From Gemmatimonadales bacterium (GTDB lineage: Bacteria > Gemmatimonadota > Gemmatimonadetes > Gemmatimonadales > Gemmatimonadaceae), in the NCBI GenBank assembly GCA_038208045.1, contig JBBQZD010000001.1, positions 4,526-68,525 of the forward strand: a stretch of 64,000 bases of DNA. The letters run 5' to 3'. The position numbers and the translations under genes are program-made. Shown piece after piece: positions 2,095 to 53,863 of the stretch. The stretch's first letter is position 1. The number at the start of each line of letters is the position of its first letter. Under the pieces are notes generated by a model. The model saw only the letters and a program-made list of their open reading frames with translations, had not been told where the DNA came from and did not search any database.

Positions 2095-2282
2095 ACAAGC
2101 TTTGCAACTTCAATACGGTGGCACGGAGGAAAAGGGGAGGGTCATGGCGACTGCAAATACTCTGAAGGGGCTCGCGGTGAGATCTCACCACCAGGCCCCC
2201 CAAGAATCGCAATTGCATCCTCCGCGGCCCTCAGCCGTTCCTCCGCGCCTCCGTGTTGAAGCAGTTGAGGAAGGGCGCTCCA
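2095..2282 (+). repeat. nested-palindrome repeat (NPR) copy 1, degenerate, beta/beta' arms
   Basis: ttcaatacggtggcacggaggaaaaggggagggtcatggcgac ... ggggctcgcggtgagatctcaccaccaggcccccc ... cctccgcggccctcagccgttcctccgcgcctccgtgttgaag aligns with copy 2. Confidence 0.7.
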
Positions 2283-8436: not shown

Positions 8437-8637
8437 CGGTGAGGGATGCTCGGCTTTTTTCAACACGGAGACACTGAGGAAGAACTGAGGGCCACGGAGA
8501 CTGCTACTGCCAAATTCTTTGGGGCTCGGCGGTGAGATCTCCCCGCCGGGCCCCCGTTGAATTGTAGTTGTCGTCTCCGTGGCCCTCAGCTGTTCCTTCG
8601 TGTCTCCGTGTTGAAGCAGTAAAAGGAATCGCCACGC
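8437..8637 (+). repeat. NPR copy 2, beta/beta' arms (near-perfect long hairpin)
   Basis: TTCAACACGGAGACACTGAGGAAGAACTGAGGGCCACGGAGAC ... center ... GTCTCCGTGGCCCTCAGCTGTTCCTTCGTGTCTCCGTGTTGAA. It begins 1 nt after the upp stop. Confidence 0.9.
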
Positions 8638-10701: not shown

Positions 10702-12120
10702 TCACTTCCCCACACAGAACGTCCGGAACACGCGGTCCAGCACGTCCTCGACGTCCACGGCCCCGACCAATTCCTCCAGCGCCGTCACCGCCGCGCGCAG
10801 GTGCGTCGCCGCCACCGGAGCCGGGAGCGCCCGCTCCATCCACGCCGCGCGAAACGCCGCCAGTTCCTCGCGGGCACGCCGCAACGATGCCTCGTGCCGC
10901 GCCCGCGTCACCACCGGCGTCTCCTCATCCGGCGTCCCCACCCTCTCGAGCACTGCCCGCCGAATGGCCCCGCGCAACAACTGCAACCCCTCCCCACCAA
11001 CCGCACTAACGCAAACACCCCCCAAAGAAGCAGCCTCCGTGGCCCTCAGCCCTTCTCCGTGCCTCCGTGTTGAAGTTGCAGTAGCAGTTGCAGTAGCAGT
11101 TGCAGTAGCAGTTTCCCCCAAATCACACTTGGTCAGCACCGGCACCACCACCCCCGCAGTGAGCCCGCGCACCGCAACAACGGTGCGCTCCAGCACCTCG
11201 ACGCTGTCCGCGCAGGCAAGCACAACGTGCGCCTGCGCCACATACCGCTCGCTCACCTCGATGCCCAGCCGCTCCAGCGTGTCGCCGCTGTCGCGGAGCC
11301 CCGCCGTGTCGACCAGCCGTAGCGGGTACGGTGTGTCGTCTACCAGCACCTCCACCGCATCGCGTGTGGTCCCGGGGATCTCACTCACCAGCACGCGCGC
11401 CTCGCCCACCAGCGCGTTGAGCAGTGACGACTTGCCCGCATTCGGCGGTCCCGCCAGCACCACCAGCGCGCCATCCCGGCCGAGCGCCGCGGCCGGCAGC
11501 GTGGCGAGCAGCCGGTCTATCTGGGCCAGCGCCGCATCACACGCCGTCGCCACGCGCTCGCGCGACGGCGCCGCCTCGTCCTCCTCGGGGAAGTCGATCT
11601 CATAGGCAATCAGCGCATCCACCTGCAGCAGTGCCTCGCGCATCGCCAGCAGCCGCTGCGACAGCGCCCCGTCGAGTTGTCGCACCGCCGCGCGATGCGA
11701 CGCGCGCGACCGCGCATCAATCAGGTCGGCCACCGCCTCGGCGCGCACGAGGTCCAGCTTGCCGTGCAGCACCGCACGCTCGGTGAACTCCCCGGGCAGT
11801 GCCGGCCGCGCGCCCGCGGTCACGCACGCCGCCACCAGCAGCGTGCTCACCACCGAGCCGCCGTGCACCGCCAACTCCACCACGTCCTCGCCCGTGTACG
11901 AGTGCGGCGCGGCAAAGCGCGTCACGAGGCCGTGGTCAATCACCTGCGCCGGGTCGTCGGCGTCGTGCATCGTCACCAGCGTCGCCAGGCGCGCGCGCTC
12001 CGGAAACGGCGTCGTCACGCGTCGGGCGATGGCGAACGCCCGCGCGCCGCTCAGGCGCACGATTGCTATCGCCCCGCGTCCCGGGGCGGTGCTCACCGCG
12101 ACGATCGTGTCCGTGTTCAT
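10702..12120 (-). CDS. mnmE: tRNA modification GTPase MnmE (TrmE), carrying a repeat-derived insertion in the G domain
   Basis: 472 aa with GPPNAGKSSLLN (G1), DTAG (G3), TKCD (G4), SAVGGEG (G5) and C-terminal FCVGK. Confidence 0.95.
   Translation of the reverse strand: MNTDTIVAVSTAPGRGAIAIVRLSGARAFAIARRVTTPFPERARLATLVTMHDADDPAQVIDHGLVTRFAAPHSYTGEDVVELAVHGGSVVSTLLVAACVTAGARPALPGEFTERAVLHGKLDLVRAEAVADLIDARSRASHRAAVRQLDGALSQRLLAMREALLQVDALIAYEIDFPEEDEAAPSRERVATACDAALAQIDRLLATLPAAALGRDGALVVLAGPPNAGKSSLLNALVGEARVLVSEIPGTTRDAVEVLVDDTPYPLRLVDTAGLRDSGDTLERLGIEVSERYVAQAHVVLACADSVEVLERTVVAVRGLTAGVVVPVLTKCDLGETATATATATATATSTRRHGEGLRATEAASLGGVCVSAVGGEGLQLLRGAIRRAVLERVGTPDEETPVVTRARHEASLRRAREELAAFRAAWMERALPAPVAATHLRAAVTALEELVGAVDVEDVLDRVFRTFCVGK
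11018..11075 (+). repeat. NPR partial copy 3 (right half, beta'-type arm) embedded in frame in mnmE
   Basis: ccccccaaagaagcagcctccgtggccctcagcccttctccgtgcctccgtgttgaag matches the right halves of copies 1, 2, 5, 9 and 10. Confidence 0.8.
11075..11113. repeat. 12-bp tandem repeat (gttgcagtagca x3 + gtt) inside mnmE, encoding (TA)6-T
   Basis: Read directly; in frame; abuts the element half-copy. Confidence 0.9.
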
Positions 12121-12130
12121 CTCAGGTCTT

Positions 12131-12323
12131 GTGCGCCAGTCAGGGCGTGTTCAACACGGAGACACCGAGGAAGGCTGAGGGCCCCGGAGACCGCCTTGAA
12201 GGAAACAAGAAACAGGGGGCCGGCGGACGAATATGTCCCCCGAACCCCGATAATGAAGCAGCCTCCGTGGCCCTCGCCGTCAACTCCGTGGCTCCGTGTC
12301 GAAGAAAGGGCAGAATGGCGCAC
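12131..12323 (-). repeat. NPR copy 4, inverted orientation (beta left arm / alpha' right arm)
   Basis: ttcaacacggagacaccgaggaaggctgagggccccggag ... cctccgtggccctcgccgtcaactccgtggctccgtgtcgaa. It fills the yidC-stop to mnmE-start spacer. Confidence 0.85.
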
Positions 12324-12333
12324 CAAGACAGGC

Positions 12334-14040
12334 CTACGTCTTCACCCCGGTCGCACCCTTCGCCCGCTCATTGGCAATCAGCCATTGCTGCGGCAGCGCC
12401 GCCAGGTTCTGGATCGTGTAGTACAGGTTCAGCCCCGACGCAAAGTTGATCAGGAAGAACGTCATCATTGCCGGCATGATGTACGCCATCATCTTCGCCT
12501 GCGGGTTCGGCGGCGCGTTGCGCATGCCGATCCAGCTCAGCACGTACATCGACGCGCCCATCACGAGCGGCAGGATGTACAGCGGATCCTTCAGCGAGAT
12601 GTCGGGCAGCCACATGAACGACACGCCGCGGAACTCGATCGTGTTCTGGAACACGAAGAACAGCGCGAACAGGATTGGCATCGGCAGCAGCATCGGCAGG
12701 CAGCCCAGCAGCGGGCTCAGCGGGCTCATGCCGTGCTCGCTGTACAGCTTCATGATCTCGGCCTGCTGCTTCTGCGGGTCGCTCTTGTACTTGGCCTGCA
12801 GCGCCTGCATCTCGGGCTGAATGCGCTGCAGCTTCATGCTCGCGCGCATCGCCTTCTGGTTGAGCGGCCACATCATCAGGCGGATCACCACGCCGAAGAT
12901 CACCAGCACCCAGCCGTAGTTCAGGTGCGTGGTGGCCTTCATCCAGAGCAGCGAGCGCATCACGATGGTCGCGAACGGCTGCACCACGCCCTGCAGAAAG
13001 CCGCCGTAGGGGTTGGCATTTTCGAAGTCCCGCCCCAGGGCGCGCATGCGCTCCCATTCCTGCGGCCCGGTGTACAGGTCGAACGACACGGTGCCGTTGC
13101 CCAGTGGAAGCACCGCCGTCGCGATGCCGCGCGTGGCCATCTTCGACGTGCGCGCGCCGCCCTCGAAATGCACCTCGGCGATCGTGGGCGCCTTTTCCGA
13201 CGTCAGCAGCGCCACCACGAAGTACTTGTTCTTCGCCACCGCCCACAGCATCGGTCCCACCTCGAGCCGCTGTTCGCCCGGGTCGAGCTTGTGGAACGGA
13301 ATGCCCTTGGACCCGCCCTTCTGCGGCTTCACCGCATAGGCCAGCGCGTTCAGGTCCCCAAGCGTGTCGCCTTCCTGCGACACGAACCCCGTCGGCATGT
13401 CCACCAGCAGGAAGGCCGGGGTGGGAACGCCGGTCACGGTCGTCTTCACCGTGCTCAGATAGCTGTCGGGCGTCATCGTGTACTGCACGGTGATGTCGGC
13501 CGTGCCGTGCACGCCGTGGAACGTCACCGTCGGCGCGTCGCCAGCGCCGACCGCGCGCGTGCTGGTGAACTGCATCGTCGACAGGCGAATCGTGTCGTTG
13601 CCCGCCAGGATGCGATAGCGCAGCAGGGGCTCGCCCTTCTGGTGAATCGTCACGAGTCCCTTGTTCGGACCCAGGCCGTGATACCGCGGCACCTCCACGT
13701 CGAGCGGCGCGGCGCCGACACTGGAGAGACGCAGGTGGCTCAGCGCCGTGTTGACGGTCACCGTTTCCGGCACGACCATCGTCGGTGCGCCGGGGGCCGC
13801 CGCGCCGGCCGGTCCCTGGGTTGCGCCGACAGCGGCGCCGACGGCGGCGCCCATGGCCGGCACGGGCGCCGAGGGAGTCACGGCCGTCGGATTCGCCGCC
13901 GCTCCGGCGGCCGCATCCGACGACGCCACGACTTCCGTGGGCGCGGAAGATGGTGCGGGCTTGACGCGCGGAAACAGGAAGGGCGTGGCAACCACCACCA
14001 CCCCGGACAGCGCGAATGCTAGAAAGAGCTTTTTATCCAT
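12334..14040 (-). CDS. yidC: membrane protein insertase YidC
   Basis: 568 aa with a large periplasmic domain and a C-terminal 60-kDa IMP core (MKLQRIQPEMQALQAKYK...NLYYTIQNL). Conserved rpmH-rnpA-yidD-yidC-mnmE synteny. Confidence 0.95.
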   Translation of the reverse strand: MDKKLFLAFALSGVVVVATPFLFPRVKPAPSSAPTEVVASSDAAAGAAANPTAVTPSAPVPAMGAAVGAAVGATQGPAGAAAPGAPTMVVPETVTVNTALSHLRLSSVGAAPLDVEVPRYHGLGPNKGLVTIHQKGEPLLRYRILAGNDTIRLSTMQFTSTRAVGAGDAPTVTFHGVHGTADITVQYTMTPDSYLSTVKTTVTGVPTPAFLLVDMPTGFVSQEGDTLGDLNALAYAVKPQKGGSKGIPFHKLDPGEQRLEVGPMLWAVAKNKYFVVALLTSEKAPTIAEVHFEGGARTSKMATRGIATAVLPLGNGTVSFDLYTGPQEWERMRALGRDFENANPYGGFLQGVVQPFATIVMRSLLWMKATTHLNYGWVLVIFGVVIRLMMWPLNQKAMRASMKLQRIQPEMQALQAKYKSDPQKQQAEIMKLYSEHGMSPLSPLLGCLPMLLPMPILFALFFVFQNTIEFRGVSFMWLPDISLKDPLYILPLVMGASMYVLSWIGMRNAPPNPQAKMMAYIMPAMMTFFLINFASGLNLYYTIQNLAALPQQWLIANERAKGATGVKT

Positions 14041-14058
14041 CGGCGATTGGCGTGTTCG

Positions 14059-14268
14059 TCAGGGCACCGGGTCGTAACCGCCCGGCCGGAATGGATGGCA
14101 CCGCGCAATGCGCTTGACCGCGAGCCATCCACCACGCAAAGCGCCATGCTTCTCCAGCGCTTCGATGGCATAGTGGGAACAGGTTGGATAATAACGGCAC
14201 GACGACGGAAGATGCGGCGACAGCACCACCTGGTATCCGCGTACGAAGAGAACCAGCAGCTGTTTCAT
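14059..14268 (-). CDS. yidD: membrane protein insertion efficiency factor YidD
   Basis: 69 aa: [38 protein letters not shown]. Confidence 0.9.
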
Positions 14269-17840: not shown

Positions 17841-18033
17841 GGCGCCATTCGGGGCTTTGTTCAACACGGAGCCACGGAGTTGACGGCAAGGGCCACGGAG
17901 ACTGCAACGGCAATTCAAGGGGGCCTGGGGGACAGCACGGTCCCCCGGGCCCCTGAGATTTTGTAATCGCAGCCTCCGTGGCCCTCAGCTTTTCCTCGGT
18001 GTCTCCGTGTTGAAAAAAGCCAAGAATGGCGCC
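17841..18033 (+). repeat. NPR copy 5 (alpha left arm / beta' right arm), full length with outer GGCGCCATTC...GAATGGCGCC palindrome
   Basis: Read directly. It fills the spacer between dnaN (stop 17834) and the convergent gene (stop 18045). Confidence 0.9.
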
Positions 18034-20408: not shown

Positions 20409-20420
20409 GCGCGCATGAGC

Positions 20421-20556
20421 AGGCAGCAGAGAAAGGCCGAGGGTCACGGAGCCGGCGACATACAGTCAAGCGAGGACATTATGAACCTCGAACCCGACAT
20501 TCCCAGCGTCGTCTCCGTGGCCCTCGGCCCTGCTCCGCGCCTTCGTGGTGAAGAAG
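20421..20556. repeat. NPR copy 6, degenerate (beta-type arms, replaced center) overlapping the 5' end of the GxxExxY gene
   Basis: The left arm gcagcagagaaaggccgagggtcacggagccggc matches ~24/34 to the copy 4 left arm. The right arm gtctccgtggccctcggccctgctccgcgccttcgtggtgaagaag aligns with the copy 1 right arm. Confidence 0.55.
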
Positions 20557-20969
20557 TTCACGCACCGAACGCGGCCAACACCGCCGTCGACCTCAAGCAC
20601 ACGCACGACCCGCTTACCGAACGCGTCATCGACGCCGCCATCGAGGTGCATCGGCAGCTTGGCCCGGGCCTGCTCGAGTCGGTGTACCAGCTCGCGCTCG
20701 AATACGAACTGCTCGCGCGGGGCATCTCGTTCGTCAGCGAGGTGCGGCTGCCGGTCCGCTACAAAGGGATGGAACTCGCCGGGCTGCTGCGGCTGGACCT
20801 CGTGGTCGAACGCGACCTCGTTGTGGAACTCAAGTCCGTGGACATCGTGCACGCCGTGAACCACGCGCAGGTGCTGACGTACCTCCGCCTTGGCGGCTTC
20901 CGCCGTGGGCTGCTGATCAACTTCAACGTCAGTCGGCTGGCCAACGGGGTGCGGCGGTTCGTGAGCTAG
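20481..20969 (+). CDS. GxxExxY protein (PD-(D/E)XK nuclease superfamily, TIGR04256-like)
   Basis: GLLESVYQLALEY (G-x-x-E-x-x-Y) and DLVVERDLVVELKS (D...ExK). ATG at 20481 with GAGGA 6 nt upstream. There is no alternative in-frame start downstream of the repeat arm. Confidence 0.8.
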   Translation: MNLEPDIPSVVSVALGPAPRLRGEEVHAPNAANTAVDLKHTHDPLTERVIDAAIEVHRQLGPGLLESVYQLALEYELLARGISFVSEVRLPVRYKGMELAGLLRLDLVVERDLVVELKSVDIVHAVNHAQVLTYLRLGGFRRGLLINFNVSRLANGVRRFVS

Positions 20970-20971
20970 GT

Positions 20972-21529
20972 TCAGGGCACCATTCGCGCGACGATCTCCC
21001 GGGCACCGGCCAGCGCTTCCACCGCAAGCCCCTCGGCCTCGAGCACTTCGCGCCCGCCCTCTTCGCGATCCACGACGGCGAGGACGCCGAGCACGTCGCC
21101 GCCGGCGGCGCGAATGGCGGCTACCGCTTTCAGCGCGGAGCCGCCGGTGGTGATGACGTCCTCAATCACCACGACCCGGTCGCCCGGCTGAAACGGACCC
21201 TCCACCAGCTTGCCTGTTCCGTGCGCTTTGACTTCCTTCCGCACCGTGAAGGCACGCACTGGGGTGTTGGCGAGCGCGCTGGCGTGCGCAATCGCATACG
21301 ATACGGGATCGGCGCCGAGCGTCAGCCCGCCAACCGAATCGGGCGACCATCCGCGCGCACGCATGCGCTCGAGGGCCAGCGGGCCGATCGTCGCGAGGCC
21401 GTCCGGGCTCATCGTCGTGAGGCGGGCATCGATGTACAGGTCGGACTGGCGTCCGGACGCCAGCGTGAAGCTGCCGCGCCGGGCGGAACGCGCGGCCAGC
21501 ATCTCGACCAACCGGGAATGGGGATCCAT
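20972..21529 (-). CDS. pyrE: orotate phosphoribosyltransferase
   Basis: 185 aa with PRPP-binding motif VVVIEDVITTGGSA. Confidence 0.95.
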   Translation of the reverse strand: MDPHSRLVEMLAARSARRGSFTLASGRQSDLYIDARLTTMSPDGLATIGPLALERMRARGWSPDSVGGLTLGADPVSYAIAHASALANTPVRAFTVRKEVKAHGTGKLVEGPFQPGDRVVVIEDVITTGGSALKAVAAIRAAGGDVLGVLAVVDREEGGREVLEAEGLAVEALAGAREIVARMVP

Positions 21530-22657: not shown

Positions 22658-22697
22658 CGTCTGGTGGTTGAGGCGGGGCGGCAGCCTGGGCTTGTTC

Positions 22698-22735
22698 CAA
22701 CACGGAGACACGGCGTCCTCGGTGTCTCCGTGTTG
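22698..22735. repeat. NPR mini-copy 7: outermost stem only (CAACACGGAGACAC-loop-GTGTCTCCGTGTTG)
   Basis: Read directly. It lies between the convergent histidine kinase and Ser/Thr kinase genes. The GGGCTTGTTCC left flank resembles the full-length left flanks. Confidence 0.7.
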
Positions 22736-22762
22736 CAGCCGTTCCACCCCGCACGCAAAACA

Positions 22763-29448: not shown

Positions 29449-30290
29449 AGCGCGGCATCGGTGCAGGCGTCCTCGCAGCGCTCATGGCGTGCGGCGCTCC
29501 CGTGCCGGATCGAGCGGCCACACCCGGCGTGGCTGCACCTGCTGGCGCGTCGCGCGATGCCGTGCGCACCACCACCGAGGCGTGGCCAGACGCCATCGGC
29601 GGCGTCCTCGCCCTCGCGAATCCCGTCACCGGCGAAGCGCTGCTCTTCCGCCGTGACACGCTCGTGCCGCCGCGCACCGTGGTGGTGGTGGGCTACGACT
29701 CCACGGTGCAGCCGGCTGCCATCCGCGACGTGCGTCCCCTGCCGTGCGCCGCGCGTGCCCTGCTGCGGGTGACAGGCGTCGCCGCCGGGTGGACGCTCGC
29801 GCTCGACGCCGAGAGCGCGGGTCGTGCGCGGCCACTGGCCATCGACGTGCTCGAGGATCTCACCACCGTCGATTCACAACGTGTCGTGGTGCGCATCCAG
29901 CGCGCGCTGAACACGCTTCCCGATACGGGCAGCGGCATGGAATTCCGCGGTCTTCCCGTTGTCGTGCGTGACGCGTGGCTGGTGTACGGACCGTCGGACA
30001 CCCTGGTCGTCGCGCGCGCGGCGCGCATGCGCAACCTCGAGGCCACCGCGCACGAGGAACTGCGTTTCGTCGTCCTCGAGGGCAACCAGCCCCGATTCGT
30101 GGCGCGCGTCGCGGGCGACGAGGAAGTCATCGAGTCGTGGGATCTGCTTGCCGCGCTCGACGTGCATGGCCAGCCCTGGCTTGCGATCGCGCGCGAAGGC
30201 GTCCGGTCGCTGCAACTCGAGGTCATCACGCGCGACGGTGCGGTGTGGCGATCGGCGTGGCGCAGTGATGCGCTCCGGTGTTCACGATAG
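29445..30290 (+). CDS. hypothetical lipoprotein
   Basis: MKRGIGAGVLAALMACGAP lipobox. ATGA overlap with the upstream ORF. No recognisable domain. Confidence 0.55.
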   Translation: MKRGIGAGVLAALMACGAPVPDRAATPGVAAPAGASRDAVRTTTEAWPDAIGGVLALANPVTGEALLFRRDTLVPPRTVVVVGYDSTVQPAAIRDVRPLPCAARALLRVTGVAAGWTLALDAESAGRARPLAIDVLEDLTTVDSQRVVVRIQRALNTLPDTGSGMEFRGLPVVVRDAWLVYGPSDTLVVARAARMRNLEATAHEELRFVVLEGNQPRFVARVAGDEEVIESWDLLAALDVHGQPWLAIAREGVRSLQLEVITRDGAVWRSAWRSDALRCSR

Positions 30291-30296
30291 TGTAGT

Positions 30297-30489
30297 CCGC
30301 CATACCGGGCTTGTTTCAACACGGAGCCACGGAGTCAACGGCGAGGGCCACGGAGGCAGCGACTACAAATTCCTTGGGGGTTTGGTGGACAGTCCCGTCC
30401 GCCGAGCCCCTTGGAATTGCGGGTGCAGTCCAGGTGGCCCTCGCCGTTGACTCCGTGGCTCCGTGTTGAAAGAAGCTTCAAATGGCGCC
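30297..30489 (-). repeat. NPR copy 8, alpha/alpha' arms (near-perfect hairpin), center inverted relative to copies 9 and 10
   Basis: The reverse complement of its center (ggggctcggcggacgggactgtccaccaaaccccc) matches the centers of copies 9 and 10. Confidence 0.9.
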
Positions 30490-30501
30490 CCACACTCGGC
30501 T

Positions 30502-44880: not shown

Positions 44881-45082
44881 GGGCAATTCTGGGCTTCTTT
44901 CAACACGGAGCCACGGAGTTGAGGGCGAGGACCACGGAGACGGCAACGGCAATTCCAAGGGGGCTCGGCAAACGGGACTGTCCGCCGGGCCCCCCAAGTA
45001 TTTGTAGTTGCGGTCTCCGTGGCCCTCAGCCTTTCCTCTGTGGCTCCGTGTTCCGTGTTGAAAAAAGCTCAGAATGGCGCAC
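44881..45082 (+). repeat. NPR copy 9 (alpha / beta' arms; extra ccgtgtt duplication at the right end)
   Basis: Read directly. It fills the convergent spacer between stop 44873 and stop 45087. Confidence 0.9.
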
Positions 45083-53663: not shown

Positions 53664-53863
53664 AACGCCATTCGGGGCTTTTTCAACACGGAGCCACGGA
53701 GTCAACGGCGAGGGCCACGGAGGCTGCAACGGCAATTCAAAGGGGGCTCGGCGAACGGGACTGTCCACCGGGCCCCCAAGTATTTGTAGTTGCCGTCTCC
53801 GTGGCCCTCAGCCTTTCCTCGGTGTCTCCGTGTTCCGTGTTGAAAAAGTCCGGAATGGCGCAC
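53664..53863 (+). repeat. NPR copy 10 (alpha / beta' arms), full length
   Basis: Read directly. It begins 4 nt after the helicase stop, and its last base overlaps the tag stop codon. Confidence 0.9.

Follow-up and report, generated by a model that had tools for sequence, protein, structure and literature searches.

Arm variants of a dispersed palindromic repeat in a Gemmatimonadales bacterium are probably inherited forms of a decayed heptamer unit, with exceptions arising by templated copying

Introduction

When both arms of a palindromic repeat appear to have changed together, the change may reflect either selection for a paired hairpin or copying of one arm from a template. This question is raised by a repeat recurring in a 64,000-nucleotide stretch of DNA from a Gemmatimonadales bacterium (the window), in which an 18-nt segment of each arm was described, in an initial annotation of the sequence, as occurring in two versions, alpha and beta. 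The two versions were proposed to co-vary between the arms and so to preserve pairing, with their asymmetry defining the orientation of each copy; symmetrical copies were ascribed to selection on the hairpin or, alternatively, to hairpin-templated repair or gene conversion.

Results

The Repeat Is a Gene-less Imperfect Palindrome

The window carries ten copies or fragments of one repeat (Table 1), and a profile search of the whole assembly (G000; 3.2 Mb in 408 contigs, 81% complete, 69% G+C) returned only ~24 loci, 13 of them full length. A full copy is a gene-less imperfect palindrome of 160–210 nt. From the outside inwards, each arm comprises an outer repeat (GCGCCATTC...), a terminal block (TTCAACACGGAG), the 18-mer, and an inner block (GGGCCACGGAG); inside the inner block lie a centre flank, a GC-rich apical stem-loop, and then the mirrored half. 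Single-strand folds of the copies are far better than those of shuffled sequences, e.g. −71.3 kcal/mol (z = −15.2) for copy 8 and −58.2 kcal/mol (z = −9.3) for copy 10, both as ssDNA. The repeat shares with MITEs its terminal inverted repeats, small size, lack of a gene, many copies, and presence or absence at orthologous sites. No target-site duplication was seen at copies 5, 8, 9, and 10, where the ends are blurred and an outer inverted repeat fades into the flanks.

Stop codons are found within a few to ~40 nt of the elements, most of which separate convergent genes; the elements are spaced 1–15 kb apart among housekeeping genes (dnaA, dnaN, RNase P RNA, and parAB) in both orientations. Identity with integron attC sites was rejected on the grounds of this spacing, the mixed orientations, and the lack of a same-orientation array of short cassettes. 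An Rfam search of the whole window identified RNase P RNA only, with just sub-threshold matches to generic hairpin families at the element. Element centres were not flagged by an intrinsic-terminator scanner, which disallows interrupted stems, and a promoter scan flagged no promoter arising from the TTGAC of alpha. Literature searches for the heptamer CACGGAG, around which the arms are built, gave chance matches only, while GxxExxY/PF13366 (see below) appeared just in catalogue papers, and no paper describing the system was found.

A 7-nt duplication inside the terminal block (CTCCGTGTTCCGTGTTGAA) is present at the right ends of copies 9 (45044–45062) and 10 (53826–53844), which are 9 kb apart; it is slippage in the heptamer array. 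Elements of a second genome of the genus, G003, form head-to-tail tandem arrays of two or three copies ~30 nt apart (L035:1704-2236; L036:5062-5401; L037:7067-7388 and 13655-14152), which include alternating P/Q arm combinations; there are no such arrays in the window.

Table 1. Coordinates of the repeat copies and neighbouring features in the window
Feature	Position	Strand	Remarks
Copy 1, diverged, both arms non-alpha	2109..2260	.	Arms 13/18 alike
Copy 2, both arms non-alpha	8459..8615	.	GAAGAACTGA / GAACAGCTGA, 14/18 alike; apical loop of another type (GAGATCTC)
Copy 3, half element (one arm) within MnmE gene	11018..11074	-	
Copy 4, opposite orientation	12150..12303	-	Beta 12162-12178; alpha 12274-12291(-), 2 mismatches; centre diverged
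Copy 5, downstream of dnaN	17860..18014	+	Alpha variant TTGACGGCAA 17872-17889; beta 17985-18002(-)
RNase P RNA, class A, 287 bits	19000-19367		Between dnaN and GxxExxY gene
GxxExxY (PDDEXK_3 / TIGR04256) nuclease-fold gene	20415..20969	+	Sole copy found in assembly
Copy 6a, degenerate, 5' end of GxxExxY gene	20432..20562	.	Older terminal block TTCACCACGAAG
Copy 6b, mini-hairpin of terminal blocks only	22696..22737	.	
Copy 8, whole quasi-palindrome + outer inverted repeat	30289..30496	.	63-nt arms at 86%; ssDNA fold −71.3 kcal/mol; also placed at 30315
Copy 8 left arm, perfect 38-nt tract TTTCAAC...GGGCCAC	30314..30351	+	Exact reverse complement of 30434-30471
Alpha in copy 8 left arm	30327-30344	+	Exact 18-mer
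Copy 8 apical GC-rich stem-loop	30376..30410	.	Helix 6 of alignment A1, 93.6% paired
Copy 8 right arm, perfect 38-nt tract	30434..30471	-	Alpha also in sister species
Alpha in copy 8 right arm	30441-30458	-	Exact 18-mer
Copy 9, canonical	44899..45062	+	Alpha variant TTGAGGGCGA 44911-44928; beta 45026-45043(-)
Copy 10, canonical alpha-x...y-beta	53682..53844	+	Alpha 53694-53711(+), beta 53808-53825(-)

Alpha Is a Compact Class and Beta a Loose Set

Much of the initial description of the arms is borne out. Alpha and beta are identical at 11 of 18 positions when aligned without gaps, and both strings are found where they had been placed; copies 5, 9, and 10 are alpha-left/beta-right; and in copy 8 both halves of a perfect 38-nt inverted repeat carry alpha, the centre of this copy aligning as the reverse complement of the copy 9 and 10 centres (alignment score 45 versus 19). 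Copy 4, which had been called the exact inverse of the canonical arrangement, is so with respect to its arms, but its centre is too diverged to follow suit, scoring only 6–16 in either orientation. Similarly, copies 1, 2, and C62 are loosely beta on both arms, as described, but they are not symmetrised hairpins, their arms matching at 13–14 of 18 positions.

The division into two discrete classes applies to alpha only. In G000, the ten alpha arms form a compact class (mean edit distance 2.6), and the other 24 arms form a cloud (mean 5.6 edits apart) with bridging forms such as GAACGGCTGA and CAACGGCTGA; the intermediates that had been called for thus exist on the beta side, and relatives contribute many more arm versions. 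Beta is a loose set of older versions, not one class. The copies bearing alpha are also the most alike (82–90% identity to copy 10 versus 71–79% for the others). The alpha pattern is missing from 17 of the 18 other genomes of the genus and is found in syntenic contigs of a sister species (see below); it is restricted to this clade. A difference within alpha, TCAAC versus TTGAC, was considered as a mini-inversion, which was rejected on finding the one-step intermediate TTAAC in the sister.

A broader search located the exact 20-mer TTCAACACGGAGCCACGGAG at 34 loci, from Acidobacteriota to Planctomycetota, where it always heads three or four x-CACGGAG units that are mirrored on the other side; a GxxExxY gene is near just one of these 34 loci. 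An intact CACGGAG forms the third unit in some arms of G001, another genome of the genus (GAGCACGGAG), and in arms from other phyla, while other third units of G001 read GAAAGGCTGA (identical to beta), AACTGCCTGA, and many further forms; in G003, a separate pair of arm versions occurs, combined as P/P and P/Q. Given the intact third units and the many variant forms, the 18-mer appears to comprise unit 2 followed by a decayed unit 3, alpha and beta being two among the many products of this decay.

Covariation Is Confined to the Apical Hairpin

Pairing was analysed on an alignment (A1) of 12 full copies from the 81%-complete G000 assembly, oriented by their centres. RNAalifold left the 10-nt core of the alpha/beta segment unpaired. 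With the initially proposed pairing imposed on A1, 54.7% of cells in the core (columns 25–32 with 140–148) were paired, the values for the two flanking helices being 94.8% and 93.6%. Neither the pairing of the core (53.2 ± 2.9% in shuffles, 192 of 500 being as high) nor its covariation (0.172 versus 0.182, with 311 of 500 shuffles at least as high) rose above shuffle controls that ignore the relatedness of the copies. The apical hairpin (helix 6) was 93.6% paired and exhibited a covariation of 0.308 versus 0.180 in the same type of control, a value reached by none of the 500 shuffles, and five of its pairs have changed on both sides. Real covariation is confined to this hairpin.

Nor are partner arms more alike than randomly re-paired arms in permutation analyses of G000 (P = 0.36), G001 (28 pairs, P = 0.13), or G003 (24 pairs, P = 0.91). 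Among the 12 full G000 copies there are one alpha/alpha, seven mixed, and four non-alpha combinations, where random pairing expects 1.6, 5.9, and 4.6, respectively. The initial observation is largely real, whereas its headline claim, that the arms co-vary to preserve pairing, is refuted. As the alpha/beta combination is untuned for pairing, the segment forms an internal loop in most copies.

The Copy 8 Site in a Sister Species

Scanning metagenomes for the alpha pattern identified four true elements. Three contigs bearing alpha elements are syntenic with the contig of the window, at about 80–83% identity, and the dnaN sequence is 88.4% identical to that of G000, versus 80.7–84% for eleven genomes of the genus; on the basis of this identity and synteny, the contigs derive from the closest relative sampled (the sister). 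Alpha on the left of copy 10 is common to the sister and G000, and at the copy 6a site, where the G000 element is degenerate, that of the sister is intact and includes an alpha arm.

At the copy 8 site, the sister has a beta-like segment (GAAGAGCTGA) window-left and alpha (TTAACGGCGA) window-right, compared with alpha/alpha in G000, which implies that only the left arm of copy 8 has changed. Contrary to the proposal that both arms changed together, it would appear that this arm alone was overwritten, from beta to alpha, as the exact complement of the right arm. The direction is read from one outgroup population and from the canonical arrangement (alpha beside centre flank x, beta beside y); an alpha-to-beta change in the sister might alternatively account for the difference. 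The exact mirror extends over 38 nt, and the flanks differ immediately outside it. An overwrite of a single arm argues for templated copying rather than compensatory selection, so that, of the two causes initially offered for the symmetrical copies, templated repair or gene conversion is supported and selection on the hairpin is not.

As a canonical element in minus orientation, copy 8 has a centre that looks inverted relative to those of copies 9 and 10. Its derivation from a plus-oriented copy by spacer inversion and homogenisation is less parsimonious, alpha also being window-right in the sister; the sister centre at this site gives orientation scores of 26.5 versus 24. The right inner block of copy 8 (30423–30433) reads CCAGGTGGCCC, not CTCCGTGGCCC, a difference of three changes in five bases positioned just inside the perfect tract, exactly at its boundary. 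CCAGGTGGCCC could be what is left of the arm as it was before conversion, or else the product of a second small templated event.

Centre Orientation and Conserved Blocks across Loci

At the copy 5 site, the centre of G000 is inverted with respect to that of the sister (37 versus 20.5; flanks, 22 versus 6.5), and in C122 of G000 alpha lies beside flank y instead of x. The alpha-x/beta-y arrangement is also observed in the sister and in contig L192, from a relative, and all four arm/centre combinations exist. The proposal that arm asymmetry defines orientation is thus valid for one subfamily, with alpha by x and beta by y, and is broken by C122 and by the centre inversion at the copy 5 site. With respect to replication, the G001 elements show no clear bias (left of dnaN, 6 PQ and 8 QP; right, 9 PQ and 4 QP), and no rule relates orientation to gene direction in G001 or G000, although alpha is upstream in both tandem cases (n = 2). 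Rather than a demonstrated signal of orientation, the asymmetry is a mark of subfamily descent, which can be scrambled by recombination.

The conserved blocks behave differently from the third unit. On both arms of copies 5 and 8, G000 has the terminal block TTCAACACGGAG (TTCAAC) where the sister, at the orthologous sites, has TTCACCACGGAG (TTCACC), while a decayed G000 copy, 6a, retains TTCACCACGAAG (TTCACC). The site downstream of dnaN, which is occupied in six of 11 genomes of the genus by elements with arms specific to each genome, has TTCACC in G001 and G008 and TTCATCACAGAG in G015. In L192:776-927 the four outer/inner blocks are all CACAGAG and unit 2 is still CACGGAG, so not all units of one arm follow the same "dialect." The conserved blocks therefore shift together across arms and loci, and unit 3 does not, a pattern of concerted evolution. 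This joint change of the blocks, the true paired change in the family, points to copying among the copies or to a co-evolving recognition factor, and not to selection for pairing in the alpha/beta segment.

Whole elements are present or absent between G006 and G008. The sister has extra elements at sites that are empty in G000 and otherwise collinear, including one downstream of the GxxExxY gene (presence/absence sites: window 20970-20975 versus L186:7728-7885; L186:5388-5544; L197:11587-11746; G000:C186:1161-1251 versus L192). In genomes without an element at the dnaN site (L056 = G009 and L060 = G004), a plain hairpin is present there; its stem in G009, GGGCCAC...GTGGCCC, has the letters of the inner block of the element, and this hairpin could be an element remnant or a precursor.

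The GxxExxY Gene and the Origin Region

The window encodes a GxxExxY protein (PF13366/TIGR04256), which is not a known transposase and has no PDB relative by sequence. In at least seven genomes of the genus, ~2.7 kb separate the gene from dnaN, and two complete elements flank it in G001 and in the sister. More globally, at ~60 of 80 GxxExxY loci from many phyla the gene is enclosed by inverted repeats built from the heptamer; around the genes in other phyla, the arms have no alpha/beta-like segment and are often perfect repeats. All 11 genomes of the genus with at least five element matches carry the gene, and the four without it have three matches or fewer, a co-occurrence that is only suggestive, the genomes being related.

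Elements are clustered in the origin region (dnaA-dnaN-rnpB-GxxExxY), with ten of the ~24 G000 loci on the 77-kb origin contig and, in G001 (99% complete), ~27 of 82 arm matches in the 50 kb around dnaN, or 1.4% of the genome. The clusters span the whole window, G001:C21:244000-293000, and, in G015, C1:1-37000 and C10. The G015 cluster is similarly dense, and none of the matches listed places an arm at the two other GxxExxY copies of that genome (contigs C3 and C12); the clustering looks tied to the origin rather than to the gene.

Discussion

The observations above suggest that the arm versions of this repeat are probably inherited variants of a decayed unit, untuned for pairing, and that the exceptions stem from templated copying. 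Each arm would comprise four CACGGAG-type heptamer units (TTCAA-CACGGAG, x-CACGGAG, the third unit, and GGGC-CACGGAG), seemingly the same design as that around GxxExxY (PD-(D/E)XK) genes in many phyla, with units 1, 2, and 4 held nearly invariant and unit 3 decayed and drifting. Alpha would normally occupy the half carrying centre flank x, and the combination of arms would be inherited at its chromosomal site, several such sites being apparently common to the sister. At copy 8, the beta arm would have been overwritten over the 38-nt tract by the complement of an alpha arm, through either a quasi-palindrome template switch or short-patch gene conversion, i.e. by polymerase switching or by recombination. 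Centres may likewise have been flipped between the inverted conserved blocks (C122, and copy 5 relative to the sister), and templated copying may also keep the conserved blocks alike genome-wide, which would produce the species-specific terminal block at orthologous sites.

The donor of the copy 8 tract might have been another copy, acting through ectopic gene conversion or recombination, a possibility that we regard as appreciable if doubtful. Copies 8 and 10 have the same alpha 18-mer, from which that of C4 differs only slightly, and the species-specific terminal blocks at orthologous sites require that loci exchange sequence. However, the tract mirrors the other arm of copy 8 itself exactly over 38 nt, including the TTT that precedes CAAC, and stops exactly where the inner blocks of the two arms differ; this mirror pattern fits an intramolecular template at least as well, and the present data are compatible with both donors.

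It is unlikely that the alpha copies represent a young transposition burst from one master copy, with the arm types reflecting recent copying only. The close similarity of the alpha copies and the clean presence or absence of elements in two comparisons, G000 with the sister and G006 with G008, are as such a burst would predict, but the sister shares, at a flanking identity of 80–88%, no fewer than three of the sites that bear alpha (copies 8, 10, and 6a), and these copies therefore predate the species split.

A functional role for the mismatch itself, in which the asymmetric internal loop marks the strands for a strand-specific hairpin-binding enzyme, is quite improbable. Such marking is provided by extrahelical bases in attC sites and by subterminal hairpins in IS200/IS605 elements. 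An unpaired third unit between paired blocks recurs in G000, G001, and G003 with differing sequences, and the alpha-x/beta-y arrangement is kept in the sister and L192, as might be expected if the loop mattered. Nevertheless, partner-arm identity is not below random, giving no sign of selection against symmetry; all four arm/centre combinations occur; orientation is unlinked to replication side or gene direction; and gene-bearing arms in other phyla are often perfect repeats. The more specific form of this idea, in which unit 3 is kept mismatched so that the candidate GxxExxY nuclease, the gene for which is 10 kb away, can tell the hairpin strands apart, is slightly less probable again; were it true, copies that have become symmetrical, copy 8 among them, would either lack activity or be cleaved in both strands.

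Selection to keep the alpha/beta segment paired in an RNA or DNA hairpin, with the symmetrical copies as compensatory double changes, has very little likelihood: although the ssDNA fold of copy 8 is better than that of copy 10 by 13 kcal/mol and five segment pairs have changes on both sides somewhere in A1, the segment is unpaired in ~45% of cells with covariation not above shuffles, mixed arms are the majority in three genomes, the outgroup reveals a change in one arm only at copy 8, and the arms around genes in other phyla lack such a segment. Weak selection on partial pairing may nonetheless act, as minimum-free-energy folds still pair part of the segment, with bulges.

Template switching in imperfect inverted repeats is known to cause arm homogenisation and spacer inversion, in yeast genomes (PMC8604942) and in E. 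coli assays (PMC7202029). In quasi-palindrome template switching (the Ripley model), an imperfect inverted repeat is made perfect in one step by a cluster of changes in one arm, and spacers flip between arms; copy 8, C122, and the copy 5 site display these outcomes. In contrast to that model, the present system involves a dispersed element of 160–210 nt with arms of ~40 nt and a 38-nt tract, its events are inferred from comparison with a sister species, and its species-specific blocks also need copying between loci.

Three families of dispersed repeats provide further comparisons. The Correia elements of Neisseria (CREE/NEMIS) have alternative terminal inverted repeats, several subtypes, inversion, and RNase III cleavage of their transcribed hairpins (PMC10969869). 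They resemble the present repeat as ~150-nt MITE-like hairpin repeats in which each end exists in two versions, in mixed and symmetrical combinations, and in which inversion occurs in place. The two are, however, unrelated in sequence. Promoters and an IHF site are features of the Correia ends, whereas the arms described here are heptamer arrays in which the variable part appears to be a decayed unit and no promoter was found. The naming of Correia ends as alpha and beta reportedly goes back to Siddique et al. in 2011.

REP/REPIN-RAYT systems are similar in being dispersed intergenic palindromic repeats, often at gene 3′ ends, and in the evolution of a family within a genome in association with a single-copy gene that is flanked by the repeats. 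They differ from the present system, where the associated gene has a PD-(D/E)XK fold and the arms are tandem heptamers rather than 20–40-nt REPs with a GTAG head. Identity with a RAYT system was rejected, no match to RAYT (Y1_Tnp, PF01797) being present in G000 (81% complete).

Among published systems, the closest parallel to a nuclease gene enclosed by copies of its own dispersed repeat is that of the Ssn nucleases with their NTS/SRM repeats (PMC11893778). In both cases, a hairpin repeat commonly lies on either side of a small nuclease gene, across phyla, and the hairpin repeat is present in many copies throughout the same genome. Ssn enzymes, however, are GIY-YIG nucleases, and their repeat is a short single hairpin cut as ssDNA, while the gene in the present system belongs to the GxxExxY/PDDEXK_3 family.

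Paired-looking changes in palindromic repeats are easily misread as compensatory evolution, and hence as proof of a functional hairpin. The informative signals in this family are the covariation of the apical hairpin and the near-invariant heptamer blocks that shift jointly between sister species. Such a joint change requires either an active process of homogenisation or a recognition protein that co-evolves with the blocks, and it provides a concrete handle on any role of the uncharacterised GxxExxY nuclease family in the biology of these repeats.
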